The translations under genes were made by a program, and so were the position numbers. The notes under the pieces were generated by a model. It saw nothing but the letters and a program-made list of their open reading frames with translations, was not told where the DNA came from and did not search any database. This document shows positions 4,603-59,045 of a stretch of DNA of 64,000 nt, piece by piece (within the stretch, counting starts at the first letter, position 1; each line of letters opens with the position of its first letter). The DNA is from Eledone cirrhosa. Its lineage: Eukaryota. Where the stretch lies: assembly GCA_964016885.1 (NCBI GenBank), contig OZ024740.1, positions 223,262,001 through 223,326,000 on the forward strand. Reading direction: 5' to 3'.

Positions 4603-7600
4603 TGATGAAATGGTTTAATTTAAATTTCAACTCTTTAAATGTGTGGTTTTGTATCATAGAGCCAGATGTGATCCTAGGTAGGTTGGTATCAAAATGCTTA
4701 ATCAGGACAAAACACAGAAAGAGATCAACAAGGTCCATATAAAAGCCAAATAGAAGCCTGTCCTGTTCCATAAAACGATGTTGGGTTGTGAACCTACTAT
4801 AATAGATTCTATAAAACTTATGTCTGCTGTGCATCAAACACGATGAGATTCTTCTATTTTCACAGCATTAAGCATCTGGATTTCAAGACATAACAACAGA
4901 CTGGACAGCAAATTAGCTAGAACATACAATAAATGTTTCATCAAAATACTGAAACAGAGTATGTAATGTAGTCCCAGACCAGACCGGAATACATATTTTA
5001 TAAATTCTTCTCAATAATAACTTCAAATATTCTTATGACAATGTCTTAAAAGTAAAAAAGACTGTCTGTGTATCTATCTATCTGTCTCTCCCTCTCCATA
5101 CACACGCATGTGTATATATATGTGTATGTGTGTGTGTGTGTGTGTGCATATGCATGTAAAAAGTAAAAGGAAAACAACACAGCAAATGATACAGTAAGAT
5201 ATATATATTAGTTTAACACTTGATATAGTAGGATAGGAAAAAAATTCAATGTTCTTCATCAGAATATAAGAAAGAGAAATAAAGGAATAAATAGATAGAG
5301 GAGAATGAGAGGAGGAAGAAATAGAAAAAGAAATTGGGAGAAAAAGCATGTGTGTTCAGTTTGTCATTATATCTAGAATATATGAATCATGTGTCTTGGT
5401 TTGTAGTATCATCTTTATCACCATTAAACGTCCATTTTTCCATGCTGGCATGGGTTAGACTAGTTAACCTGTTGTGAGCACTGCTAGGTCAGGAGACCAT
5501 GTCATGCTCATACAGAACCGATTTTAGCTTGGTTTCTAAGCTGAAAGCCCTTCCCAGTGCTAACCTCGTTTACAATTAGTACTGGGTGATTTTTGTTGTG
5601 ATGCCTACAGGACCACTTTAGAGTATGGGCTGGGTGCTTTTTGCCATGTCATCATCACGGCCACTTTACAGTGTGTGCTGGGCGCTTTTTGTTGTGTCGC
5701 CATTATGACCACTTTACAGTGTGGGCTGGATACTTCTTAGTATAAAGGGTGATGAATTAGTAGAATCTCGGATATGACAATGTAGTGTATTTTCATGCTT
5801 TTTACATTTTGAGTTAAAATCACACATAGGTTAACTTTATCTTTCATCCTTCCAGAGGCAGCGACATAAAGTACCAATCATAAAATGGAGTTTATTTGCC
5901 CTTCCTCCAAATTATCTGGATTTTACTTAAATTAGAAATTAATATTTCTAGATAATAGTAATTAGTTCAATGTCCAATAATAATTTTTGTTTTAAAACAC
6001 TAAAAGCAGGAAGTATTTTGTTGGATGCAAATTTGAATGCTTATGTTATCTGTGTTCCATAACTTTAAACTTACGTTTGGTATTCCTAAAACTTCTGTAG
6101 CTAGAAAGTATTGTTTGTTATTGCTCTTTGTCATATTTCTCATGTTTGATGTGTTAAATGACATTGAGCTTGTATACAGTTTGTGTGTTTTAGTTTACTT
6201 ATGTCCCATTCTTACATAGTTATTAAGAGCATCTGTGATAATTTGCTTTTGTAAACAGTATATTTTCTGTGTAAAAAGATCTGTTTATTTTTCAAGAATA
6301 TCACACAATGGGAAAAAGCAGACTTCATAACATTTTCATGACCATATTTCTAATGAAATACATTGCATTTGAATTAACCAATGTAGAAAGATTTACTATA
6401 ATTATTAATTATTCCTTTATTAAAATGGTATTTGTAACATATTTTAACAAAAAGTTGTGTCAAATTGTGTCAAAGATTTTACTTTAAGAATGGACCTTTG
6501 AAATAGTTAGTTTTGTTTCATATAAAAAGAAGCAATTTTTGGGTGGTTTGGTATCAAAATTATTGATGTAAATTTTAGGTTGAATTAATATGACTGAGTT
6601 GAATATTTGAATTAGTCACAATTCATCTGATGAGCTTTCCCAGAGATTTTGCCAAGTCGATTTCACTCATGAGGTTTGTGTTGACTCAAGGTTATGGCAA
6701 AGACAGTTTCTCAAGATGCTTCACTGTGGAATCTAAACTGGCACCTTAATATTACAACATAAACTTCTTAACCACTCAGCCATGCATTCGTCCTCATCAT
6801 TACAGCACCATTTATTCAACTAGGCAGAAAATTGGCAAAGTTATTAGAGTGTTGGATTAAATGCCTAAGTATCATTTTCTGAGCTCTGAACCCAACTTTA
6901 CCTTTCGTCCTTTTGAGGTCAATAAATAAAGTACCAGTTCGCAGAAAGTGTATTGACATTCTTTTTAAAGAGTTGTACAGCATGAGTTGTGCTTGATTTG
7001 GCTCTGACACTGAGTTCAAATCTCACCTACCTCTGTCTGTGCAGAGTTGCAACCAGCAGATAATATCACTAATGAAAAGACCAATGGAAGCATAATTCCC
7101 TCGGTTTGATTTGATGATCGCTTCCTTTCATTTATAAAAAAACTGTAACACATATCCAATCATCTCTATACCAATAAGCTGACTACCATCACAACTGCTG
7201 CTACTTTAGCTATTCCGCTGTCTAAAACAATTATAATTAACAACAATAGCTTTTTTTTACCATTTCTCTATGGGGGCTTGTATTACTCATGTAAAGTGGT
7301 AAATCAAATGGAGATATCCTTTAATTACATGATTCTGTAGATAAGATATATTATATCTATTTGTTTATAGACAAGTGTATGAAAACAACACAAATAAAGC
7401 ATGAGATAGAATTAAGGGTTGTGGTATTATCATTGCTGGCATTGTATCAGTAATTCCACTATATACCATCTCATTGTTTATATTTGTAAATTTGTGCATG
7501 CATATGTGTGTGTTATTGTGTGTGCATGTGTGTGCAGCTTGAGTAGCTATGCAATGTGTATGAAAATATGATTTCCAAGATAAAAATAACATACTACCAC

Positions 7601-11775: not shown

Positions 11776-12110
11776 GTGCATACATTTTGCATCTGTCTTG
11801 GACCTAATACCAATTAGTAGGTGCATACATTTTACATCTGTCTTGGACCTAATACCAATTAGTGGGTGCATACATTTTACATCTGTCTTGGACCTAATAC
11901 CAATTAGTGGGTGCATACATTTTACATCTGTCTTGGACCTAATACCAATTAGTGGGTGCATACATTTTACATCTGTCTTGGACCTAATACCAATTAGTGG
12001 GTGCATACATTTTACATCTGTCTTGGACCTAATACCAATTAGTGGGTGCATACATTTTACATCTGTCTTGGACCTAATACCAATAAGTGGGTGCATCATT
12101 TACATCTGCT
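11776..12110. repeat. 45-bp minisatellite, 7 near-identical copies plus a partial copy
   Basis: Unit GTGCATACATTTTACATCTGTCTTGGACCTAATACCAATTAGTGG at 11776, 11821, 11866, 11911, 11956, 12001 and 12046. Confidence 0.97.
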
Positions 12111-16884: not shown

Positions 16885-17095
16885 GGGAAAATTTAGGTGC
16901 CAGGCCAACAATTTGGGCAAGGGAAAAGTCGATTAAATCAACTCCAGTACATTGCTGGTAGTTTATGTTATCGACCTTGAAAGGATGAAAGGCAAAGGTG
17001 ACTTTGGCAGAATTTGAACCTAGATTGTAAAGGGCCGTAACTGTATGCCATGAAGAATGATGTCCAATTCTCTACCAATTCTGAAAATCCACCAC
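16885..17095 (-). mobile_element. tRNA-derived SINE
   Basis: AGGATGAAAGGCAAAG...GAATTTGAACC family blocks. Confidence 0.8.
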
Positions 17096-18383
17096 ACTTT
17101 TTCTGTAAATCATAATAGATTGAATCTTTGTTTAGCTTAATAGAAGCAATGAGCTGTTGATAAGATGGTGACCAGAGTAGACAAAGATCTGTTAACAGTA
17201 ATCAAATTTGACAAGCTAATGACTACTGTTAGCCAAGAGTGCCAATAGAAGAAGCAATGGTGGACAATGCAGTAATAAAATGTGTGAAAGGAACAGAAAA
17301 TGAATATGAAATGAACTAGTTGGAATGGGTAGAGGAATAGTTATAATTTAAAAAAATATATATATAAACAAGTCACAAAATATTAACAGGAAAATCTGAA
17401 GTGGTCATTGACCAGCACATTTAATTATCGTTATATTTATTATTCAAGGTTGGCAGAATTGCTAGAGATTTGGACAAAATGCTTTCAGGCATTTATCTCA
17501 GTTCTTTACATTTTGAGATCAAAACAGGTTTCTGTATAAATGCAGACAATAAACAACCCCAGTTTAGTGAGAATACAGACAAGCTTAGCATACAGTTTTG
17601 AATATAAAGGTAGAGATATCACTGAGACTAAATACAATTTGCAATTGATTATGCACAGATTTTCATAAGGTGAATATGTGCTTGTTAGTGTGAATGTGGA
17701 CTGATAATGGTAAGTTTGAGAGGGGTTTTGCTGTGTGCAGAACAATTTATCTGATGAATGTACTACTCAGAAAGCTAACTCTTTTTAAAGAGTTTGGTAA
17801 GGGGATTCTGAAAAGGTGGTTCAGATTACCTTAACATATCAGAACAATCTAACTGCAATTTGGAAAGCAAGAAGCAATACAATGAACAATCCTCTTTTCC
17901 TTTCCTGGTGGCCATATGTATATTATAGACATGGATGACCACTTCCCAAATAATGATTGGGAATGATTTTCAGCAGATATTATAAGCAGTGTTTGTTGCT
18001 TGTACAGTTCTGGAGTGTAGCTGTAGGTAAATGACTCAAGATTTAGAACAGTGAGCTTTGTTTTTGTGAATGATGAGGGATACCTTTGTACAATAATGTT
18101 TGACGCACCTTCTTAGCTGTCTTGGATTGATCAAGAATTACACAAATTTATTGCCAAGGATAGTCCATGTAGATTTAGTCGAATCCCAATCAAATTTAAG
18201 TATGTACACGTACATACATATATGTATACAGGCATACAGTAGTATGTATATATATATACATGCACACATATATATATGTACGTATAGATTCCCCGAACAT
18301 TTATTATAATGCTCGGTGTGTTTGTAAACAAACATCCCATCCCGTATTAAGCCGTTGTGTCCAGCAACCATCGTTGCTCATTT

Positions 18384-18470
18384 GTTCAACACTGACAAAG
18401 GAATGCTGTACTAGTTTCAAGCTTATTAGCTATCGTCAGCAACGTATACCTTCCTGCCAGATTGTTGAAC
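18384..18470 (-). ncRNA. Type I hammerhead ribozyme motif, second copy
   Basis: Reverse complement equals the + copy except CAGCAT vs CAGCGT, giving one stem I mismatch; core identical. Confidence 0.8.
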
Positions 18471-18732
18471 GTATATACTTACCTTATGCATATTAACGGC
18501 TGAGTAGCCCAATTTGCATATCGAGTGGGTTAATCGGCCGGGTGCACCGAAAACGATAAATGGAAAAAATGAAACGAAATTTCATTTCCCACTCTTAGTA
18601 CGGCTGTTACTTAAATATAAGTATGTACACGTACATACATATATGTATACAGACGTACAGTAGTATGTATATATATATACATACATGCACACATATATAT
18701 ATGTACGTATGGATTCACCGAAAAGTATATAC

Positions 18733-18819
18733 GTTCAACAATCTGGCAGGAAGGTATACGTTGCTGACGATAGCTAATAAGCTTGAAACTAGTACAGCGT
18801 TCCTTTGTCAGTGTTGAAC
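18733..18819 (+). ncRNA. Type I hammerhead ribozyme motif (minimal palindromic stem III, extended stem I)
   Basis: Core CTGACGA 18764-18770; stem II AGCT-AATA-AGCT; GAAA 18785-18788; stem III ACTAGT palindrome; GUA triplet with predicted cut after 18794. Stem I pairs: ACGTTG/CAGCGT, AAGG/CCTT, CTGGCA/TGTCAG, GTTCAACA/TGTTGAAC. Confidence 0.85.
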
Positions 18820-20715
18820 AAACGAGCAACGATCGTTGCTGGACACTACGGCTTAATACGGGATGTTTGTTTACAAACACAGCGAGCATTATAATAAATG
18901 TTCGGTGAATCCATACGTACATATATATATGTGTGCATGTATGTATATATATATACATACTACTGTACGTATGTATACATATATGTATGTACGTGTACAT
19001 ACTTATATTTAAGTAACAGCCGTACTAAGAGTGGGAAATGAAATTTCGTTTCATTTTTCCGTTTACCCAATCAAATTGTTTAACAGAAATATTAAGAGGA
19101 TTGTATGAGAGAAGGTTGATGAAGGATGGGATACCTTGATTAGGAAATAGATGATACACTCAATGAAAATTACTGAGATAATCAAGGGTTTCAAATGAAG
19201 TAAAAACAATGTGATCCCAGAGAAATAAGGAAGGCAGATTTTATGTCAGATTAAGTAGATGCCTTTGTTGCTGACATCTATACAGAGAGAGAGAGAGAGA
19301 TTTTGTATAACTGCAGATTTTGAAAGAAGAATCTGTGTAGCATGTAACCTAGATGATACAAATGTATCAGAAATAGATTTTCTCTCTCTAAGTTTAGATA
19401 CTCTGATATTATTTTGAAAATGTAGTATATGTGATGAAGATGTCATATGTTTAATTTTGCATAGTCGTAAAACCTGACACTTTTAGACAAAGTGAATGTT
19501 AAACATAATTTCTAAGAATTAACAACTTAAGTGTAATTAAATAATTCTAATTAGAAAATGAAACCATATCCTAGTCTTAGTTAATCTGAAATTTGCTTCC
19601 ACTTTATAGTATAGCTTTATAGTATACATGTATCCCATAATTTTCTATATACTCCTCATGTGAACGTGTAGCATCTATGATTTTTTCTTAAAAGTATTTG
19701 TGATATATAGAGAAACTATTTTGATAGCAACCAACCAACCTGAAACTGCTACTTGTTCTATATAATATACATATATTAATACTTATATTAGAGTATTCAT
19801 ATTTATATTAAATGTTTTCAACACTGTTTTATATTAGAACTTTTTAAGCATTGTACCAAACATCAGCTTAATAATGAAAATGTTAGTTATTTGACTAACT
19901 TCCTCCAAAGTTTACATTATTTTCAAAATTAATTAAATCACATTGGCAGTGCATGTCATTAAAAATATCCTAACAAAGGGGTTTGTTTGTTCAAACAGAA
20001 AAATATAAAACAAGTCAGATTGTACAAGATGTAGTTCTTTCGAACCATGACAACCCATCCAAACCATGCCAGCTTTGAAAACAAGTGTAATATAATGATG
20101 ATGATGATGTAAGCATATTGTTAATCTGTGTGACTCACAACAGAAATAGTAACGAAAGTAACAGTGATAACCTCTCTGACTAATACTATCATTTAGAGGG
20201 GATAAATCAAATTACACTATGATTACATATGCCACTAAATGATAAGGAAAGTAAGACTTCAATATCAGAGATACTATTGACGAGAAAGCTTCATAAATTG
20301 TCAAAGATAAACTACATTTCCATCTTCTGTTCTTTGAAATGTTTCCTTGTACAGAGCTAGAAAATTAACTAATTCCAATATAGCAAGAATTATTTATTAT
20401 CTCAGCTGTTCTATGATTAGTTTTTAATTCCCATAACATTCAACTTGTTTAATCATTCACACTTGCTTTCAATATTACATCTGTACATTTGGAACTTCAC
20501 AGAATATTGTAGCTAAATAAACAGGTGACTCTGTTTTTACTATGCCAATCAGAAAGTTAACTACATGAAAGAAACATGTGACTGTGCTTTCTCAATACGG
20601 CTATTCCTTTTTATCTTTCTGTTGCCAATCTCTAACTTATTTCATAACAGAATCTTTTATCCATACACATAATAAATACCATTACTACTTTAAACTTTTG
20701 AAATATGCTTATGAG

Positions 20716-24804: not shown

Positions 24805-25640
24805 ATATCTAGGGCAGGTAAATATCCCAAGATCCATGGACGAGTTCTCTCCAGCGGTCTCTGTCCCTCATTATCGCTGCCATGTCCTGCATCTCCAAGA
24901 GATCAGTGTCTGTCCTTAGGGCATCAACATATGTTAACCTCGGTCTTTCTCTTCCAGTGTGTCCATGTAGGGGCTCCCACAGGAGCACTGAGTGCAGTGT
25001 CAACTCTGGATGTCAGTGAGCATGTCCAGCTAACCTCAGTCTCCTCTGTGACTTTTGAGCTGACGTTTGGGAGGCTCCCGTACAGCTCTGAGTTTTTCAT
25101 CCTCAGTGTATACTGATTAATGTTCAGAGCCATCCTCAGCATTCTCGTGTAGCACCCATTCACCATCTGAGCGAGTTTCTTGATCAGTGTCCAAGTCTCA
25201 GACCCGTACAGCAGTACAGACTCCACTACAGCAATGAAGAGGCGGATTTTCACGTCTTTACGAAGGTCCGACTTCCACACCGATCTCAAGCTGTGCCACG
25301 CCACCCAGGCTTTGCTCTTCCCCTCGACCACATCATCTCTCGTGTTCCCAATCTTTGCTCCCAAATACAGGAAGCTCTCAACCAATTCTAGCGGCTTCCT
25401 GCCTACATTAGTAATCTTCTTTGGCTTCTTAATATTCTCTATCTGATATTTCGTCTTAATCTCATTCATTCTCAGCCCCACACTCATTGACACAGTCTCC
25501 ACCTCCTGCATCAAATCCTCTGCCTCCTTCACTGTGTTTGTCACCAAAACTATGTCGTCAGCAAATTCAGCATCCAATATCTTTTTCACCTTAACTCTCC
25601 TGCTCTGAGCCAGTGCTACAGTAAAAATCAACTCCGATTG
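24805..25640 (-). mobile_element. 5'-truncated RTE-like LINE (RT C-terminal half)
   Basis: ORF 24924-25694 contains FADDIVL, VGLRMNEIKTK, FLYLG, LLYGSETW; frameshifted continuation LWEPLHG...RDRDRWRELV. Confidence 0.85.
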
Positions 25641-28325
25641 GTGGATTTTCGATGTATACTGAGAGAAGACCACAGGTAAAAAAAAGATACTCAATACGTT
25701 AGTAGAGGATAGGCAACTATATTTTATTACTGAAATTACATCTACAGGACTTGAACTGTTTCATTTCTAAGAAATCATTATATATATATATATATGGGTG
25801 GGGTGTAACAATGGGCTTCTACACAGTTTCCATCTGCCAAACTGCCCTCACTGTTTATTGGTCAACCTGTGACTATTGTATAGACACAAGCTGAATATGC
25901 CCCATACATGGTGTTTAACTTTGAATTGCAAGATTACAAACTAAAACTCTTAACCACACAGCAATACCTGCAACTCTATAGAAGTTAATTTAATCATGCA
26001 TATCCTTTGACTCAAACAAACACTGATTTTTTCTTAAACATGAAAGAATGAACTTCTCTATCATTTTCAGTTTATTTGTCAAATACCAAAGGGTGTTGGA
26101 AATTATTTTATTGTCTTGATATAGTCAGACGATGTCATTTTATCATAGTAATATATTTGAGTATATTGAAACAAAATATTTTCACCTTATATATATATAT
26201 ATCCTGGTTTTAATTCCCATTGAGACCTCTGGTATCTTCAATCCATGAACTGTCATTTTCCTCTGCAAAATCAAGACAAGAGTATTACATCTGAGGAAGG
26301 GTTTTTATGGGAAGGAATAACTAATGCATTGGATATCACTAGCTATTCTGCTCAGCAATGTTTTCGTGTTCTTGCCTACATGGCATATCTAAGATATGCT
26401 GTTCAACCAAGAGCATAGAGCCTTCATATTCTTATTTTCTTCTTTTTATTTTTTCTTATATGAAAGTTTGTTTGTTTTTCATGGGGAATTTTGAATAAAA
26501 ATCTCTGTTGATATAAAAAAAAATAAATTCCTTGTAGAAAGAGGTATTTGTAATGCCACCAAGAAGAACCAGAAATTAAAATCGTTTTGCCTTTCAAACA
26601 TTCCACATTCAATAAAATATTGTACCAGCGAATTTCTGAAGTAGAATTAATGACAAACATTTTCGTCAAATTGCTGCCTGTATATTGTAAGATTTACATA
26701 TAATTGTAGTTAAAAGTCACCAGCATGTGGGCATGTCTCCCCACTCTCTCTCTCAAAGAAAGAAACAAACAAACACAGACACATGTGCATATATATGCAT
26801 TTTTGTGTTTATATCTATGTGTCGATATTTGATAAATGCTGGGGACTGTTTATAATTACCATTGTATATAAAACTTAGATAAGCACATTTAATCTACCTT
26901 GACCATTAAGTACCTTTTTTTACTTCCTATAAGCCTTTGTTTAGCTCTACACATGGCTGGTTACTGCAAGATCAAATCCATTTATCAAAACCCAGAGCCA
27001 TTGAAGTTAGCTTTTCAAAATAATTTCTATAGAATTTTCTTTTTGTCTGTTGACCATTTATCCCTGAATACCCTATCCTACCACAGACACATTTTCTTTT
27101 TCTTATTCACTTAAATATTCTAGTTTCAATTAAAAATAATTTCTCTTCCTTCTTACTCCTCTTCGTTCATTCCCTTTCCTTCATTGCCCCTCCTTCTTCC
27201 TTCTCTTCTTCAATAATAATTTATACTTCACATTCAATTTTTCCTTACACCAAATTCCACTACTTTATAAACTCTACCTACATAGTACATACAAGATAAC
27301 ACTAAGCATAAACAAATATCCATGATTGCAGAAATTGAAGATGGATACAGCCAACTGCTGGCAAAATTTTGAAATGATTGCAAACTATTTTTTTGTAAAT
27401 GTATGTGTACTGAGACATGTGTGTAGGGAAATTTTAAAATAAATTTCTATGCTTCAATATAATAAGCATATATTTTGTCTCATTCTAAAAATAGACAAAG
27501 TGTTTAAACCACCACATGTAGCACACTACATAATAAAATGAAGTAGAATAAATGTGATAGTTATGAGCACACTAAAGATGATGGTAGTAGGTATAAGATA
27601 ATAACAGGTCTGATGCAATTCCTCATACATAAGCATATTTATGGGAACAAAAACAAGAGGCAGGAGTGGTAATATTCCTTTAAACTTTTACATAAGATTC
27701 TGGCGACATCATTAGATTCAGATTGCATAATTAGTTAATCAATAAAGGAATTACGGCAAACACAATCAGAGAATAGTGAAAATATATGATTTTGAGATGG
27801 CTGTCGAAATAGGTGTTATTGTTGCTGCAGACAATAAAAAGCTCATCAATCCAAAGCATTATGGGTTTGGTAAGCATGACCAAGATGGGTGGTGGATTTG
27901 TGTGGTGGCAATATACATTCCGCTGATATAGATACTACTATACTGTTAATGAGAGCCAACCAGTCTGCTGCCACAGAGGTTAGGGGTAATACATTCTGTG
28001 TAAATATATCCTGGCCCAAACCAGCTAAGTATGACCATGGAGAAAATCATATTAAAGGTGATATGTTCTATGGAGGTTAAGAAAGATATAAATATATATT
28101 AAAATTTCATGAACAGTAATGAACGTTGGGTTGCAAGTCGTGTTAAGTGAACTTTTTATAACTGTCTTGATGTCCATAGAACATATCATCTTTAATTTAA
28201 TCAACATCAACGATGGATGAGTTGCATAATATTGACTGCTTTTTCTACTATTACACCATGGTTAGCTGAATGGAATGATCAATTCATCCATTGGGAAACC
28301 ACAGAACTTAAATATATATATACAA

Positions 28326-28471: not shown

Positions 28472-28931
28472 CATACATGTATATATACATGTATGCATAT
28501 ATATACACACACATATATATATATATATATACACACATGTATATGTATATATACACATGTACACACACACATATATATATATACACACATGTATATGTAG
28601 ATATACACATGTACACACATATATATATATATATATATACACACACGTATATGTATATATACACATGTACACACACACATATATATATATACAGACACAT
28701 GTATATATACACATGTACACACACACATATATATATACACACACATGTATATATACACATGTACACACACATATATATATATATATACACACATGTATAT
28801 ACATACACACATATATATATATATGGATATATATGTGTGTATATATATATATGTATATATATGTGTGTGTGTATATATATATGTGTGTGTATATATATAT
28901 ATGTGTGTGTATATATATATATGTGTGTGTA

Positions 28932-28974
<43 letters not shown>

Positions 28975-29412
28975 GTATATGTATATATACACATGTACAC
29001 ACACACATATATTTATGTATATATACACACACATGTGTATACATACACACATATATATACACATGTATATGTATATATACACATGTACGCATATATATAC
29101 ATACATATATACATATATATATTCATATACATACATACATATACATACATATACATACATATACATACATATATATATATATACATACATATGCACACAT
29201 ATATACATATATATATAACCCATGCTAGCGTGGAAAATGGATGTTAAATGAAGACGATGATGATGAGATGATGATATACACATACATACATGCATATATA
29301 TATAAATACACACATGTATATATATACATATATACATACATTCATACATACATACACAATATATATATACATACATTCATACATACATACACACAATATA
29401 TATATATATATA
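28472..29412. repeat. Compound TA/CA/TACA microsatellite array with an embedded RTE tail at 29217-29270
   Basis: Direct inspection. Confidence 0.95.
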
Positions 29413-38696: not shown

Positions 38697-38702
38697 ATAT
38701 AA

Positions 38703-38894
38703 TAACTGTTTCTACATTTGGCACAAGGCCATCAATTACCCAGTACATTACTGGTACTTTATTTTATCGACCCCGTAGGATGAAAGGCAAAGTTAACCTC
38801 GGCGGGATTTGAACTCAGAATGATAAGGGCTGTAACTCTATGCGTCAAAGCATGGCGTCCGAACCTCTACCAATACTGCCAATCCACCGCCCTT
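38703..38894 (-). mobile_element. tRNA-derived SINE (young copy, inverted partner)
   Basis: Near reverse complement of 38506-38696. Confidence 0.9.
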
Positions 38895-40324
38895 TACATT
38901 AATGTAATAACGTTTTGAAGTCATGTTCCAAATGCCAAATTAATGAAAAAGTAATTTTACCCAATCCTTCCAAGTCCTTTAATATTTTAAAAATTAATTG
39001 AAATTTATCAGTAGAGTATTTCATTAAAAAAATGGTCAGGTAAGGGTAAATGAAAACATAATTATTAATTAGATTATAATAGGTATTATATTATTTCTAT
39101 CAATTTTATCAAACATGCAATTTATTTTCCAATTTTCACTTTCTATGTTTAATTCCTTCTTTTTCTCTCAGTCTCACTATTTCCCTATCTCTCTCACTCT
39201 CAGCACACACACTTTCTCACTCATTTTGATGTATTTTTCTGTGTTGAGGTGTGCATAAATTTAAACATATAGATGTGATTGTGCCTGAATGTGTATGTGT
39301 CATTCAAACTTTATAAAACAATCCATGCTGACATAGGTTGGCCATGTTGCAATCATCCAAATTAGTTCTTATTACTGCCCTCCTAAAGGAGTCATATAAC
39401 CATGTGGTGTTTTTATGCTCCATCTTTTTGGCTTCAATTCTATGGTTGGATGTCTCGTAACTTCAATTACTTTACAGAATGTACTGGGTACATTTATCAT
39501 GACACCTTCACTAGGTGATGCAAGGCTAAGAAAAGCTATCTATATCAGAGCTTCAACATTTTCCCAGTTACATAGCATTCTTATAATCAGCTCGGAATAT
39601 GTGCCAGAAATTATATATTATAACTGATATTGTGCTCTGCTTTTAAACATAACACCAAAATTCTTCCTTTCTATCTTAATCATTTCATGACACTATTTCT
39701 TATGAAATATATTCTATTTTAATTAATTAATGAAGAATTTTGAGGAATTTACTAGAATAATTCATTATTCCCTTACTAAGATAGTAGCTTAACATGTGGT
39801 TCTTATTGAAAATTATGTTGGAAGATTTTAATTTAATTAGTAACTCTTTAAAATAGGTGATTTTGTTTCATAGAACCAGATGTGGTTTTGGGTGGGTTGG
39901 TATCAAAAAGGTTACTCGATACAACTACAAGGAGTGTTGATTTCTATCATAAATACAAAGCCTCACATTTTGGGAAAGAGAGTAGTTGATTGAATCCTTC
40001 ATTACTCTTTGCTGGCATCTTATTTTATGAAACCCAGAAGTACAAACGGTAAAGTTAACCCTTGTTGGATTTGTACCCAGAACATAAAAGGATGTATAAT
40101 AATGCCCCAAAACACTTAGACAAACAATATACCAATTCTACCATCAATTACCCTACATAAATATTAAGTAGCAAAAGGGAGGTAACTTAATGATAGATAA
40201 TGAATCAATAAAAAACTATCAAATTTAAGGTTATTAATTTTGGTGTGTTTCAGAATGATACTTTAGTATTTGAACTTAAATTCTGAACCAGACACAAATT
40301 AAGAAGCAATATAAATTAAATTAA

Positions 40325-40977
40325 TAATTGTTTCTACTTTTGGCACAAGGTCAGCAATTATCCAGTGTATTACTGGTACTTTATTTTATCGCCCCCATAA
40401 GGATGAAAGGCAAAGTTAACCTTGGCAGGATTTGAACTCAGAATGGCAAGGGCCGTAACTCTATGCATCAAAAGCCTGGCATCCGACCCTCTACCAATAC
40501 TGCCAATCCACCGCCAGTAATAATGGTTTCTGATTTAGGCACAAGGCCAAGAATATTTTGGGATGAGGAAAGTCAAATAAATCAACCCCAATACATTACA
40601 GGTACTTTGTTTTATCAACCCCTTAAGGATGAAAAGCAAAGCTAACCACAGTGGGATTTGAACTCAAAACATAAAGGGATGTAACTATGCCATGAAACAT
40701 CGTCCAATGTTGTATGGATTCTGACAATCCACTAAAGTAGTAGTAATAATAATTATTATTATTTCCACTATAGGCACAAGGCCAGCAATTTGGAGGGAGG
40801 GGAAATTTGATTAAATTGACCCCAAATGCATTACTGGTGCTTTATTTTATTGACCCTGTAAGGACAAAAAGCCAAAGCTAACTTCTGCAGGATTTTAACT
40901 TAGATCGTAAAGGGCCATAACTATGCCATGAAGCATGTTGTCCAATGCAGTATGGATTCTGCCAATCCACCACCCTA
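40325..40977 (-). mobile_element. Three tandem copies of the tRNA-derived SINE
   Basis: Copies at about 40325-40516, 40520-40735 and 40758-40977, each with GGCACAAGG...GGATTTGAACTC-like...CTGCCAATCCAC-like blocks. Confidence 0.85.
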
Positions 40978-42620: not shown

Positions 42621-42647
42621 CAACAATGACAACAATAAAGATGATAA

Positions 42648-42840
42648 TAATTGTTTCTACTTTAGGCACAAGGCCAGGAATTAAACAGTACATTACTGGT
42701 ACTTTATTTTATCGACCCTGTAAGGATGAAAGGCAAAGTTAACCTCCACGGGATTTGAACTCAGACCGTAAAAGGGATGTAACTATGCTGGAAAGCATGG
42801 CATCCGATTCTCTACCGATACTGCCAATCGACCGCCCTAG
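42648..42840 (-). mobile_element. tRNA-derived SINE
   Basis: Same family blocks as 38703-38894. Confidence 0.85.
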
Positions 42841-51489: not shown

Positions 51490-51562
51490 AATATACACAC
51501 AGATATATATATATATATATATATATGTACATGTATATGTACATATGTATATATATATATAT

Positions 51563-51614
<52 letters not shown>

Positions 51615-51843
51615 CCATACATATATATGTACATATATATATATATATATATACATACACCTATAGATATATATGTATATATATATATACACACATACAT
51701 ATATATGTACATATATATATGTACACCTATACATATATATGTATATATATATATACACACATACATATATATGTACATATATATATATACACACATACAT
51801 TTATATGTACATATATATATATATATATATACACCTATACATA

Positions 51844-51886
<43 letters not shown>

Positions 51887-52005
51887 CTATACATATATAT
51901 GTATATATATACACACATACATATACATATATATGTACATATATATATATATACACCTATACATATATATGTACATATATATATATACACCTATACATAT
52001 ATATG

Positions 52006-52038
<33 letters not shown>

Positions 52039-52070
52039 ATATATATGTACATATATATATATATATATAC
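51490..52070. repeat. Compound TA/CA microsatellite array
   Basis: Direct inspection; recurring TACACCTATACATATATATGTA motif. Confidence 0.95.
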
Positions 52071-55000
52071 TAGAGTTGATTTAGCTTCGTTCCAGTCATC
52101 CATCTCCCTACCTCACAATTTCCCTCCCACCACCATAGCTTATTCGACCAATCAAACCTCAGCATGCCATTTCTTCTGCTACTACTACCTAACTAACTCT
52201 CTCCTCCCCTCTCCCAGCCCAACACACCCTCCCATTATTCCACCACCACTGTTCTTCTAACCCTGAATTTTCCTACCGTTATGGATGGATGAGCTGAGAA
52301 TAAATTTGAACAACTCTGAATTAATAGATGAAATATGAATCTGCAAGCTACCAAGCACCCATGTGAAGCACCAACCAGAGACCCTGCTCTACGAGTGTCG
52401 ACAAATTCCCAAAACTCTAAGTTGGTACCATCAATGTAAGCACAATGAAAGGAAGAGCAGGAGAAATCGTAGAAATGCTAGGGCGAAAGGAAATTGATGT
52501 ATGCTGTGTGCAAGAGACTAGATGGAGAGGAGAGTCTGCTAGAGTCCTTGTAGGAAAAAGTCAGTGCTACAAATTTTTCTGGGTGGGAAATGACGATGGG
52601 ATGGGTGGTGTAGGTATACTACTAGCTGACAAGTGGGTAGATAAAGTAATCTCAGTGTACAGGGTAAATGCAAGAATCATTAAACTCAGACTAGTCCTGA
52701 ATAAAACAATTACCACAATAATATCAGCTTATGCACCCCAATCGGGGTTGCCAGACGAACTTAAGGATGGGTTTTACGAGTCCCTAATGCACACTACTGC
52801 TCTAACAAACGACAATGACTTCCTAATAATCGCAGGAGATTTTAACGAACTTGTAGGTAAACACTGCGATGGCTTCAATAGAGTCCATGGAGGCCATGGG
52901 GTTGGCACAGGAAATGAGGAAGGATTCAGACTTCTAGAATTCTGCGACGCCAATGACATGTCGATATGTAACACAAACTTCAAAAAACCCGACAACCACC
53001 TGATCACCTATAGATCAGGGGAGCATTCTAGTTAGATAGATTTTATCCTCATCAGAGGACGTGACAGATGGACGGTCGTAAACACAAAAGCCTTCCCTAG
53101 TGAGGAATGTACATCCCAACATAGCTTAGTTGTCAGCGACCTCACAGTCAGAACTAGACGAACCTGGAAACAGAGGCCAACCTGGAGAAGAAAGATCTGG
53201 AAGCTGAAAGACCCCTCAACCAGTAACAGATTTAAAGATATTTTACTCAACGCCTACGACAGTAAAGAAGAACAGATACAGACATTCAATGTAGAAGAGA
53301 ACTGGGAGTTCCTAAAAAATAACTTACTAGAGGCGACGGATGAGGTCTGTGGCTGGAGTAAGAACACAAGCAGGAGGAGAGTGACTTGGTGGTGGAACAA
53401 TAAGGTAGATGAGGCAGTTAAGGCCAAGAGACAGGCATGGAAAGAATGGAAGAATGGGGGGAGCAGGGTACATTACATAGAGACCAAGAGGGAAGCTAGG
53501 TGACAAGTATACTTAGCTAGGAGGGAAGCAGAGGATAGAAAATTCAAGCATGTTTTGCAACGTGAGGACCAGAAACAGGAGGTGTTCAAGATTGCGAAGC
53601 AATCTGTCAGAGAGAATTGTGATGTCATTGAAGAGAAGTGTATCCGGAATGATAAAGGTGAACTTGCCCTCACAAGTGCTGAGAAGAGAGATGCATGGAA
53701 GAGTCATTATGATAGATTACTAAACGAAGAGAATACATGGGAAGAAGAGACCATACCCCAAGTAGACCCTATAGAGGGGCCAGCAGTACAAGTCAGCAGC
53801 AGCGTAGTAAGTAAGGCAATCAAAGATATGAAGATGGGGAAGGCAACCGGTCCATTGGGTATAGCTGCCGAGATACTGAAGGCATCTGGGTCTGTAGGTC
53901 ACACTATAACCACACGTATTGTTAACCAGGTAATACTAGAAGGTGTCATACCAAAAGATTGGTGCAGTAGCATCATTGTCAACTGCTACAAAGGTAAAGG
54001 TGATGCACTAGATAGAGGAAACTATAGAGGTATAAAGCTGATGGACCAGGTCATGAAAGTAACAGAAAGAGTTATAGCACAGTTGAGTGTGGACCGGGTG
54101 AAACTAGACGAGATGCAATTTGGGTTTGTGCCAGGAAGAGGCACCACTGATGCCCTCTTCCTTGTGAGGCAGTTACAGGAAAAGTACCTAGCTAAAAGTA
54201 AGCCACTCTACCTGGCATTTGTCGATCTTGAGAAAGCCTTTGACAGAGTTCCACATGCTGTAATCTGGTGGGCTCTTAGAAAACTAGGAGTAGATGAATG
54301 GCTTGTGAAAGCGGTACAAGCCCTGTATAGGGGAGCAGTCAGCAAAGTTAGGATTAGCAATGAGTATAGCGAGGAATTTAGCGTACAGGTTGGGGTCCAC
54401 CAGGACTCTGTTCTTAGCCCCCTCCTGTTCATCATAGTCCTGCAGGCAATAATGGAGGAGCTTAAGACCGGATGTCCATGGGAACTCCTGTATGCTGATG
54501 ACCTTGCACTTATAGCTGAATCTATGGTAGAACTAGAGAAGAAATTCCAAATTTGGAAGCAGGGACTAGAAAGAAGGGGTCTCAAAGTGAACATGACAAA
54601 GACTAAGGTCCTTGTAAGTAGACGAGAAAACAGAACCCAGATCCCCCCAGGGAAATGGCCTTGCTTAGTATGTCGGAAAGGTGTAGGTAGGAACTCTATT
54701 CTCTACCCCATATGCAAACAATGGGTACACAAGAGATGTAGCGGGATCTCAGGAAGCTTAATTAAGAATGTAGGCTTCACATGCAGCAGCTGTGCTGGGA
54801 CAGCAAGCAGCAAACAGCCACAGGAAACAAGTACCACCAATCTCTGGGAGGGCTCTGTAGAAACAGTAGACAGCTTCTGCTACCTAGGTGACCGAATTAG
54901 CAGCGGAGGTGGGTGTTCAGAAAGTACAATAACTAGGGTAAGGACGGGATGGAAGAAGTTTAGGGAACTACTGCCACTGCTAGCTGCAAAAGGCTTTTCC

Positions 55001-55361
55001 CTCAAAATGAAAGGCAGACTGTATGATGCGTGTATACAAACAGCAATGTTACATGGTAGTGAGACCTGGGCGCTGAAGGTGGAAGACTTACGTAGATTAG
55101 AAAGAAACGAAGCCTGCATGCTCCGATGGGTGTGTAATAGTAATATAAGCGAACAGCAAAGCATAAATGAATTGAGAGAGAGACTGAACATAAGGGGAAT
55201 CAAATGCTGTGTGCAGGAGGGGCGGTTGTGTTGGTATGGACATTTTATGCAGCTGTCATCCTTCATACGCATCACAGGTGCAGAGCACTAGAAGTCGATG
55301 GAAACCGCGGAGTGGGGACACCCAAGATGACCTGGGATGAGGTGATAAAAGCCGACCTTAT
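52070..55361 (+). mobile_element. Near full-length RTE-clade LINE: pyrimidine-rich 5' UTR plus single APE endonuclease-RT ORF with internal PHD-like finger
   Basis: ORFs 52445-53035 and 53555-55291 are in the same frame. EN motifs GTINV, VQETRW, SAYAPQ, AGDFN, IDFIL; RT motifs NYRGIKL, QFGFVPGRGTTDA, AFVDLEKAFDRV, GVHQDSVLSPLLF, LLYADD, FCYLGD, LHGSETW. Confidence 0.93.
52421..55359 (+). pseudogene. RTE ORF (endonuclease/reverse transcriptase), disrupted
   Basis: In-frame TAG 53033-53035 and TGA 53501-53503, TAA just before VGTINV (52418-52420), and a 32-bp inversion with frameshift at 55244-55275. Confidence 0.9.
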
Positions 55362-57504: not shown

Positions 57505-57700
57505 GATTTCTACTATAGGCACAAGGCCAGAAATTTTTGGGGTGAGAGGAAAGTCGATTAAATTGACCCCAGTGCATTATTGGTGCTTTATTTTTATTGA
57601 CCCCGTAAGAATGAAAGGCAAAGCTAACCTAGGTAAGATTCAAACTCGGATCAGAATGGGCCATAACTCAATGCTACAAAGGATGGTGTCTGACACTCTA
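57505..57700 (-). mobile_element. tRNA-derived SINE
   Basis: Family blocks. Further older copies near 3625-3765, 5747-5940, 6820-7020, 8330-8460, 33400-33620, 39960-40150, 59200-59415 and 62960-63130. Confidence 0.75.
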
Positions 57701-58660: not shown

Positions 58661-59045
58661 ATCCAATTGCACCTCTCAAAGGTGATGACACAGGACCGAG
58701 ACCTCTGGCATCACGCAGTAATACAGAAGACCTGGGTTCCCATGGTACAAGCCGAGACAATATGCCCTCACGCCCCTCCCACTGTAAAGTGGTCATGTAG
58801 GTGTCACGACAAAAAGCACCCAGTCCACACTTTAAAGTGGTCACGTAGGTGCCACGGTAAAAAAGCACCCAGTATTCACTGTAAATGAGGTTGGTGTTAG
58901 GAAGGGCATCCAGCTGTAGAAACCGAGCCAAAATCAGTCCTGTGTGAGCAAGACATGGTAACCCGACTTGGCATTGCCCACAACAGGACACCCTGTCAAA
59001 CCCATGCTAGCGTGGAAACATTGACGTAAAACGGGGATAATGATA
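58661..59045 (+). mobile_element. 3' end of RTE LINE (ORF end, 3' UTR, tail); probable continuation of the 52070-55361 element
   Basis: Reads IQLHLSKVMTQDRDLW, continuing TWDEVIKADL in the same register as the paralog TWDELINSDITHLHLSK. Has UTR tandem repeats and the CCCATGCTAGCGTGGAAAC...GAT tail. Confidence 0.8.

Follow-up and report, generated by a model that had tools for sequence, protein, structure and literature searches.

What kind of genetic element carries the hammerhead-like motif at positions 18733–18819 on the plus strand, and can the motif act as a ribozyme at this locus or elsewhere in the genome? The window, i.e., the whole 64-kb stretch of DNA analysed here, looks like the repeat DNA of an animal: it contains TA microsatellites, a family of SINE-like repeats, and pieces of LINEs, a landscape that suggests an invertebrate host and resembles that of an octopus. 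The original prediction read the motif alone and missed the element that carries it. Taken together, the data make it fairly likely that a non-LTR retrozyme, a high-copy and non-coding element with a unit of ~420 nt, carries the motif as its type I hammerhead; this retrozyme is most likely moved by the RT-endonuclease of a Penelope-like element (PLE).

A type I hammerhead motif

Every element of the motif lies where the original prediction had placed it. In the main copy, C3-U4-G5-A6-N7-G8-A9, G12-A13-A14, A15.1-U16.1, and H17 are all present in the sequence. The C3–A9 stretch CUGACGA occupies 18764–18770 (plus strand), GAAA occupies 18785–18788, and A17 is at 18794; hammerhead numbering predicts cleavage 3' of GUA, between 18794 and 18795. 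Stem I comprises 6+4+6+8 pairs, all 24 of which are intact (22 Watson-Crick and 2 G-U), with a UAU/U loop past pair 6. Three stems, open ends at stem I, and a proximal stem I of 6 bp define the motif as a type I hammerhead, in support of the hammerhead reading in the original prediction. Stem II (18771–18784, plus strand) has four pairs (AGCU/AGCU; pair probabilities 0.90–1.0) and an AAUA loop. At its base the G10.1-C11.1 pair is absent, and a U-U mismatch is found instead (U10.1 at 18771, U11.1 at 18784). The G10.1-C11.1 pair is highly conserved in type I hammerheads but not obligatory, and the axolotl ribozyme HHR_Amex2 is an active precedent for U-U at this place (PMC7229834). An unpaired U1.7 (18801, plus strand) is positioned for a contact between loops I and II. 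In solved hammerheads U1.7 touches an A of loop II (PMC11875169), and by analogy the main copy may form the same contact.

Stem III had been described as two pairs around a 2-nt loop within the palindrome ACUAGU. The palindrome (18788–18793, plus strand), which sequence and folding mark as a predicted dimer contact, stands. A 2-nt loop cannot close, and stem III is thus better read as a single A-U pair with a palindromic CUAG tetraloop; in the monomer, stem III amounts to this one pair. The description of the variant as unusual could not be upheld either, as U-U is known from HHR_Amex2 and a one-pair palindromic helix III from HHR_Amex1 (PMC7229834).

The hammerhead motif is real and beyond chance. 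A type I descriptor requiring at least 6 bp in stem I and leaving the first stem II pair free was matched in 1 of 300 dinucleotide-shuffled 64-kb windows, and with a stem I of at least 4 bp the real window contains two matches versus a shuffle mean of 0.013. The 106-nt motif region folds with z = −2.71 (2 of 200 shuffles were equally good). In the monomer ensemble most pairs of stems I and II have probabilities of 0.83–1.0 and four helix-end or core-side pairs have 0.45–0.72, while stem III pairs have 0.0. Rfam yielded no match at the gathering score in the whole window, and none of the 89 matches obtained for 17500–19600 at E up to 10 was to a hammerhead family. The miRNA-type Rfam matches, all below the gathering score and mostly over an AT-rich segment, were rejected.

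A second copy lies on the minus strand (18384–18470), with a predicted cut between 18409 and 18408. The claim of two copies thus holds for an intact plus copy and a minus copy in which stem I pair 5 is broken by a change of G1.5 to A. This change is private to the minus-strand copy; G makes up 99% of the summed depth in sequencing run X1 (see below). A further, antisense ribozyme of the viroid-like kind was rejected: a loose descriptor run on both strands matched the plus copy only, and a variant with a reduced stem I contributed nothing beyond the inverted copy.

Anatomy of the insertion

Both copies belong to one insertion of 869 bp (18197–19065), which is flanked by an exact 12-bp target-site duplication that is AT-rich and contains ATT (18185–18196 and 19066–19077, plus strand). 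Among up to 3000 random pairs of 41-nt zones, 6 shared at least 12 nt. The insertion consists of a 526-nt minus-strand and a 343-nt plus-strand part, arranged head to head: according to the repeat alignment the parts abut with their 5' ends at 18722/18723, and each 3' end points outward. The full repeat unit (18298–18722, minus strand) measures 425 nt including a 5-nt duplication, i.e., ~420 nt, and the direct-repeat spacing is 421. It is composed of an AT-rich segment A, a spacer (18481–18556, minus strand), and the hammerhead segment, in this order. The minus arm then continues into a second unit with 101 nt of partial segment A (18197–18297, minus strand), so that 1.25 units stand head to tail in the window. 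The plus-strand part covers ~0.8 unit, namely the hammerhead segment, segment A, and 7 further bases. The unit closes on itself: the joint from hammerhead segment to segment A is present twice in the window and the order A, spacer, hammerhead once. The inverted arm (segment A plus 7 nt; 18557–18722, minus strand) differs from its partner at 18901–19065 by two substitutions and one gap in 165 positions. Relative to the left end, the right end of the insertion includes an additional 55–60 nt of the unit, which gives a one-sided tail (19006–19065, plus strand). A template with two units that had already diverged was considered and rejected: substitutions number 2 in 165 positions of the inner arms and 10 in 279 of the outer ones (Fisher p = 0.22; p = 0.11 on the same 105 nt), and private changes occur on both copies.

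The unit has a GC content of 0.37, and its longest Met-ORFs encode 61 aa in sense and 78 aa in antisense orientation. No tRNA was found in the 64-kb window and, thus, the unit has no tRNA head. Autonomous PLEs carry, between pseudo-LTRs, an ORF for a telomerase-like RT with a GIY-YIG endonuclease; such an ORF is absent from the insertion, which is not an autonomous PLE. No PLE partner was seen among the 15 window ORFs of at least 150 aa; the three RT-related ones that were scanned are pieces of LINE-type RT or AP endonuclease and contain RVT_1 or Exo_endo_phos and no GIY-YIG.

The rest of the window contains several other repeats. A LINE-type element (52421–55291, plus strand) consists of three in-frame pieces split by stops, with AP endonuclease and RVT_1 domains, and a decayed LINE RT fragment (24924–25760, minus strand) has weak matches to RVT_1 and DUF6451. 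A dispersed SINE-like family (D17, D19, D20) occurs at 16904–17024, 38700–38851, 40045–40936, 42645–42797, and 57614–57682. A minisatellite at 11776–12108 has a 45-bp period (7.4 copies, 98% matches), and two tandem repeats of 48-bp period (5611–5729 and 58780–58885) have consensus units that seem related, in opposite orientation. The interrupted TA microsatellites at 28480–29217 and 51503–52069 are very long (570–740 bp).

The family in public sequencing runs

A search of public runs with the unit gave 20 matching runs from 16 studies, three of the runs with half or more of the words. None of the 20 runs listed is an RNA run, and the list is without bearing on expression. The unit was compared with the contigs of four of these runs, i.e., X1 and X6 (two samples of organism A, which is possibly the source of the window itself), X4 (organism B), and X12 (organism I). 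Matching contigs numbered 11,216 in X1, 136 in X6, and 8 in X4. Organism I was rejected as a carrier, as X12 contributed no more than a depth-2 contig of 151 nt and an AT-rich piece of 35 nt. The contrast between organism B, where one of the 8 contigs is ~96% alike over 361 nt, and organism A may possibly reflect a recent burst in one lineage, or transfer.

The spacer is covered in X1, X6, and X4, and the summed depth in X1 is 0.86–1.40 million over the spacer versus 1.05–1.94 million over the hammerhead, these sums being no copy numbers. Record 11 of X4 spans 18298–18658 in one piece, from segment A through the spacer to the hammerhead, with 11 other letters and 5 gaps, and the spacer is also bridged by records 3–8 of X1. 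The presence of this succession in an X4 contig indicates that the unit order is a family trait. Among the pieces listed no contig spans the whole unit, and two tandem hammerheads in one record were not seen in the comparison, which covered the unit outside the repeat stretch 18659–18722 and its head-to-tail joint.

One end recurs in the family. In 51 X1 contigs loose letters precede 18556, with a TA-rich consensus of agreement 0.66 (19 of the 233 loose ends were listed), and the plus arm of the insertion, whose last tail base is equivalent to unit position 18557, matches this recurrent 3' end. Further opposite-strand joints occur once each in X4 and X1, and the inversion points differ among copies (18472/18604 and 18531/18565). 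A subfamily that differs just upstream of stem I, at 18472, accounts for loose ends in 43 X1 and 4 X6 contigs. This subfamily carries a short palindrome there, near the inversion points of the locus (unit position 18480) and of an X4 copy (18472).

Of the 57 variants 40 were listed, and those within the ribozyme lie at N7 (a C-to-U change), the third position of loop II, stem I position 1.5, where the minus copy has its private change, pair 2.3/1.3, and three positions in distal stem I. The predicted conservation of the core across copies is thus borne out: among the same 40 of 57 variants only N7 of the C3–A9 stretch changes, and no change affects the catalytic core or 10.1/11.1 (18432/18419 in the minus copy), while N7, loop II, and the flanks vary at 5–77%. 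G10.1 is below 5% in X1, X6, and X12, since G at this position would read as an A>C change and all counted A>C places are listed and located elsewhere. The variants listed also agree with the claim that U-U is a family trait. The argument originally given for it, that both copies share the mismatch, is weak because both copies stem from one insertion event.

At pair 2.3/1.3 this locus has U-G, and two X4 contigs carry G-U and U-A, respectively. The change at 1.3 reaches 87% in X6, in agreement with 85% for the changes at 2.3 taken together, and the respective values in X1 are 48% and 36%; the pair is broken in the depth-2 contig of X12. The covariation expected across copies was hence seen as compensatory change at one stem I pair only, in an informal comparison that is not a formal covariation test. 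The three distal stem I pairs vary in 14–27% of the X1 summed depth with no partner change among the variants listed. Thus, the 24-bp stem I reported earlier is correct for the plus copy, but its length is not strictly kept across the family. The constancy of the core among the variants listed while N7, loop II, and the flanks vary, together with compensation at stem I pair 3, points to selection on an active fold. Allele shares differ between the two samples of organism A (18406, 87% in X6 vs 48% in X1; 18398, 80% vs 24%; 18442 A>T, 69% vs 24%), and one subfamily is dominant in X6.

The spacer contains an octamer motif (18512–18519, minus strand), one of five in the 64-kb window. None of the variants listed falls inside it, and the neighbouring positions 18505, 18510, and 18528 vary at 41–58% in X1. 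The octamer motif is linked with snRNA-type promoters. Newt satellite II is cited with a promoter of this type (PMC2220036), and retrozymes appear without promoters according to a review. The conserved octamer may be part of an internal promoter.

Monomer and dimer folds

In a double hammerhead, two molecules share a 6-bp stem III and swap their stems I. This structure was computed at −59.0 kcal/mol, within 0.2 kcal/mol of the best two-molecule fold (−59.2), compared with −55.8 kcal/mol for two molecules that each adopt the best monomer fold. The monomer hammerhead with its single stem III pair reaches −21.1 versus −27.9 kcal/mol for the best monomer fold, a penalty of 6.8. The computed energies favour the double hammerhead and agree with the dimer-type stem III of the original prediction, and this dimer-type hammerhead is probably functional. 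Core bases are mispaired in the best folds of both monomer and dimer. The 24-bp local stem I may also trap the monomer fold kinetically or slow the exchange of strands.

The proposed cleavage of a tandem dimer is compatible with the computed dimer fold but does not apply to this locus, where the two copies lie on opposite strands and a tandem dimer is therefore impossible. In RNA across the whole insertion the ribozyme is predicted to be buried on either strand (pair probabilities 0.0), and it is predicted to be free (0.88–1.0) only in RNA that starts inside the insertion, past the minus copy. The circular unit folds with z = −8.2 (0 of 100 shuffles as good), with 66% of its bases paired versus a shuffle mean of 63%. 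Without the AT-rich part the fold has z = −3.3 in sense and −4.0 in antisense orientation, and its stability is thus not strand-specific. Being self-complementary, the AT-rich part of segment A (18613–18722 and 18901–19010) folds into a long hairpin in the circle, and this part accounts for much of the fold score and for the sub-threshold miRNA matches.

Comparison with known hammerheads, retrozymes, and PLEs

Each odd feature of the ribozyme is known singly. In metazoan type I hammerheads a helix III of 1–2 bp with a palindromic loop is usual (PMC4209133). HHR_Amex2, the hammerhead of the axolotl retrozyme Rtz_353 (a 350-bp repeat), is likewise of type I with U-U at the base of helix II; as a monomer it is cleaved to 22% in 1 h and far better as a dimer (PMC7229834). 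Its stem III comprises two pairs and a tetraloop, whereas here one pair and a palindromic tetraloop are found in a unit of ~420 nt. HHR_Amex1 and newt satellite 2 resemble the present ribozyme in their one-pair helix III, palindromic tetraloop, and nucleotides for a contact between loops 1 and 2 (PMC7229834). Their cleavage is dimer-dependent, with 6% monomer cleavage in 1 h and far better dimer cleavage for HHR_Amex1 (PMC7229834), while dimer use is predicted from folding in our case. In the available text U-U is given for HHR_Amex2 only; here it coincides with the one-pair stem III. A published description of this combination in one ribozyme, or of the element family, was not found in literature searches that covered listings and main text. 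Closer variants may exist among the dimeric PLE hammerheads reportedly described by Lunse et al. in 2017, or in the supplement of PMC7229834.

Animal non-LTR retrozymes are non-coding elements of 150–450 bp with GC below 50%, one type I hammerhead, and a target-site duplication of more than 4 bp (PMC7229834; PMC7761336). The unit described here agrees with them in its size (425 nt), GC content (37%), single type I hammerhead, 12-bp duplication, and high copy number, and size, GC, and duplication also fit the retrozymes of PMC4918200. Typical members also lack LTRs, PBS, and PPT, form head-to-tail arrays with at least two hammerheads, and give highly self-paired RNA of unit length in linear and circular form; the window has 1.25 units head to tail. 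As judged from DNA sequence alone, the unit probably works like, and is, a non-LTR retrozyme. It differs in that it is seen here as a dispersed head-to-head insertion of 1.25 and 0.8 units. Inverted heads or tails of retrozymes are not described in the available text of PMC7229834, PMC7761336, or bioRxiv 10.64898/2026.07.22.740005. The latter argues for a PLE origin of retrozymes from co-occurrence and trees, mostly in vertebrates, and its available part does not mention tails, molluscs, or cephalopods.

Inverted heads and tails are found in insertions of endonuclease-bearing PLEs, which share with the locus an inverted 5'-truncated copy, a one-sided tail, a variable target-site duplication, an AT-rich target with ATT, and a recurrent 3' end (PMC8557442; PMC11167929). 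The present insertion differs from them by the lack of an ORF, a full canonical-type instead of a minimal hammerhead, and a tail of 55–60 instead of 30–40 nt.

A model for spread

These likenesses suggest a model in which tandem copies elsewhere in the genome would be transcribed as multimers. A single hammerhead would be weak owing to its one-pair stem III and the U-U at the base of stem II. Neighbouring copies could pair through the palindrome, swap their stems I, share a stem III of 6 bp, and be cut past GUA; the cut is predicted from the folding computed here and from the cleavage of the axolotl analogues. A ligase of the host would probably join the ends of the resulting unit-length RNA, and the circle would stay closed owing to the weakness of the monomer ribozyme (cf. 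PMC7229834; PMC4209133). RtcB circularises axolotl and mussel retrozyme units in vitro.

A PLE protein would then nick both strands of AT-rich DNA and prime reverse transcription at each nick, using two internal start points ~55 nt apart in segment A. Two cDNAs with outward 3' ends, a one-sided tail, and a target duplication would result. This anatomy is observed at the locus, and the enzyme is proposed by analogy with the Anolis PLE protein, which cleaves each of the two strands and extends it, has a preference for ATT within AT-rich DNA, and uses two internal start sites whose distance equals the tail (PMC11167929). With 1.25 units in the minus arm, the template would thus have been multimeric or circular. 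The locus itself would be a dead-end copy, with ribozymes on opposite strands that, in computed folds, are buried by fold-back of read-through RNA.

Several observations speak against the model. The stability of the unit's fold does not depend on the strand, and the long local stem I may delay the exchange of strands. The tail of 55–60 nt is longer than the PLE tails of 30–40 bp (PMC8557442). Cleavage was not seen for eight of nine predicted Xenopus retrozyme dimers (bioRxiv 10.64898/2026.07.22.740005), and efficient monomer cleavage is the rule among the type I hammerheads of invertebrates that have been assayed (PMC7761336). Moreover, the ribozyme of the Anolis PLE needed the protein and was dispensable for insertion in vitro (PMC11167929).

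Alternative explanations

The PLE-like anatomy might also mean that the insertion is the stub of an autonomous PLE, made of 5'-truncated pseudo-LTR copies in partial tandem and inversion, with the 420-nt period confined to few loci. An inverted 5'-truncated copy, a tail, and a target-site duplication are just what PLE insertions look like (PMC8557442), truncated schistosome PLEs have motifs on opposite strands 100–700 bp apart (PMC4209133), palindromic helices III are known in PLE hammerheads, and only 19 of the 233 loose ends were listed. However, numerous X1 contigs link segment A, spacer, and hammerhead, as does a contig of organism B, and the strongest loose end listed (18556) is TA-rich with an agreement of 0.66 rather than one shared continuation. 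In the ribozyme, too, all 6 bp of the proximal stem I are formed, and a distal stem and U1.7 are present, whereas minimal PLE hammerheads combine a short helix I with a long helix II and G10.1-C11.1 (PMC4209133). We therefore regard a PLE stub as unlikely. A DNA transposon of the fold-back or MITE type, with long inverted repeats at its termini and a chance hammerhead-like core, was rejected as extremely improbable. Arms of 158 bp that are 99% complementary do frame the motif, and a target-site duplication flanks the whole, but these arms are internal, not terminal, and the ends are unequal. In addition, the minus arm is a direct repeat of 1.25 units, the inversion points vary among copies, and the motif exceeds chance.

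Even if the unit is a retrozyme, its ribozyme could be nearly inactive on its own, also as a dimer, and be aided by a protein or carried as a passenger, the family spreading without cleavage. Two weakening features in one core, the mispaired core bases in the best monomer and dimer folds, the Anolis hammerhead that cut only with protein and was dispensable for in vitro insertion (PMC11167929), and the eight inactive Xenopus dimers of nine (bioRxiv 10.64898/2026.07.22.740005) would all be in line with this view. Against it speaks a core that is unchanged among the variants listed while N7, loop II, and the flanks vary at 5–77% and stem I pair 3 compensates, and both axolotl analogues cleave as dimers (PMC7229834); thus, we consider a near-inactive ribozyme rather unlikely. 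The converse, efficient cleavage as a monomer, would require that the long stem I and the contact between U1.7 and loop II offset the weak stems II and III. U1.7 and the A of loop II are in place, coral and mussel hammerheads cleave as monomers at 0.8 and 0.1 per minute, respectively, and HHR_Amex2 still reaches 22% despite its U-U (PMC7229834). Yet stem III pairs have a probability of 0.0 in the monomer ensemble, the hammerhead fold costs 6.8 kcal/mol, and the one-pair analogue HHR_Amex1 reaches only 6% (PMC7229834), which makes good monomer cleavage very unlikely.

Implications

The non-LTR retrozyme reading, with the PLE enzyme as its most likely mover, may extend further. Possibly, although we would not call it probable, the family is an abundant invertebrate retrozyme that combines a Penelope-type footprint, as direct evidence for PLE-driven spread, with a doubly weakened and strict dimer switch. 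The footprint would comprise the inverted head, the fixed 3' start point, the tail, and the more-than-unit-length cDNA, and the switch would let multimers be cut while the monomer circle stays silent. The ribozyme variant alone adds little, since there is tested precedent for each of its odd features. The value lies in the carrier: the mover of animal retrozymes is still argued for indirectly, and here a Penelope-type footprint is found together with a recurrent 3' end, which names a candidate start of reverse transcription for a purified PLE protein. A natural hammerhead with both weakening features would further offer a handle on how circular RNAs avoid cutting themselves. If the extended reading is true, the family would directly document, at the level of the genome, that retrozymes with canonical hammerheads are moved by PLE enzymes, a link that so far has been drawn from co-occurrence and sequence kinship.
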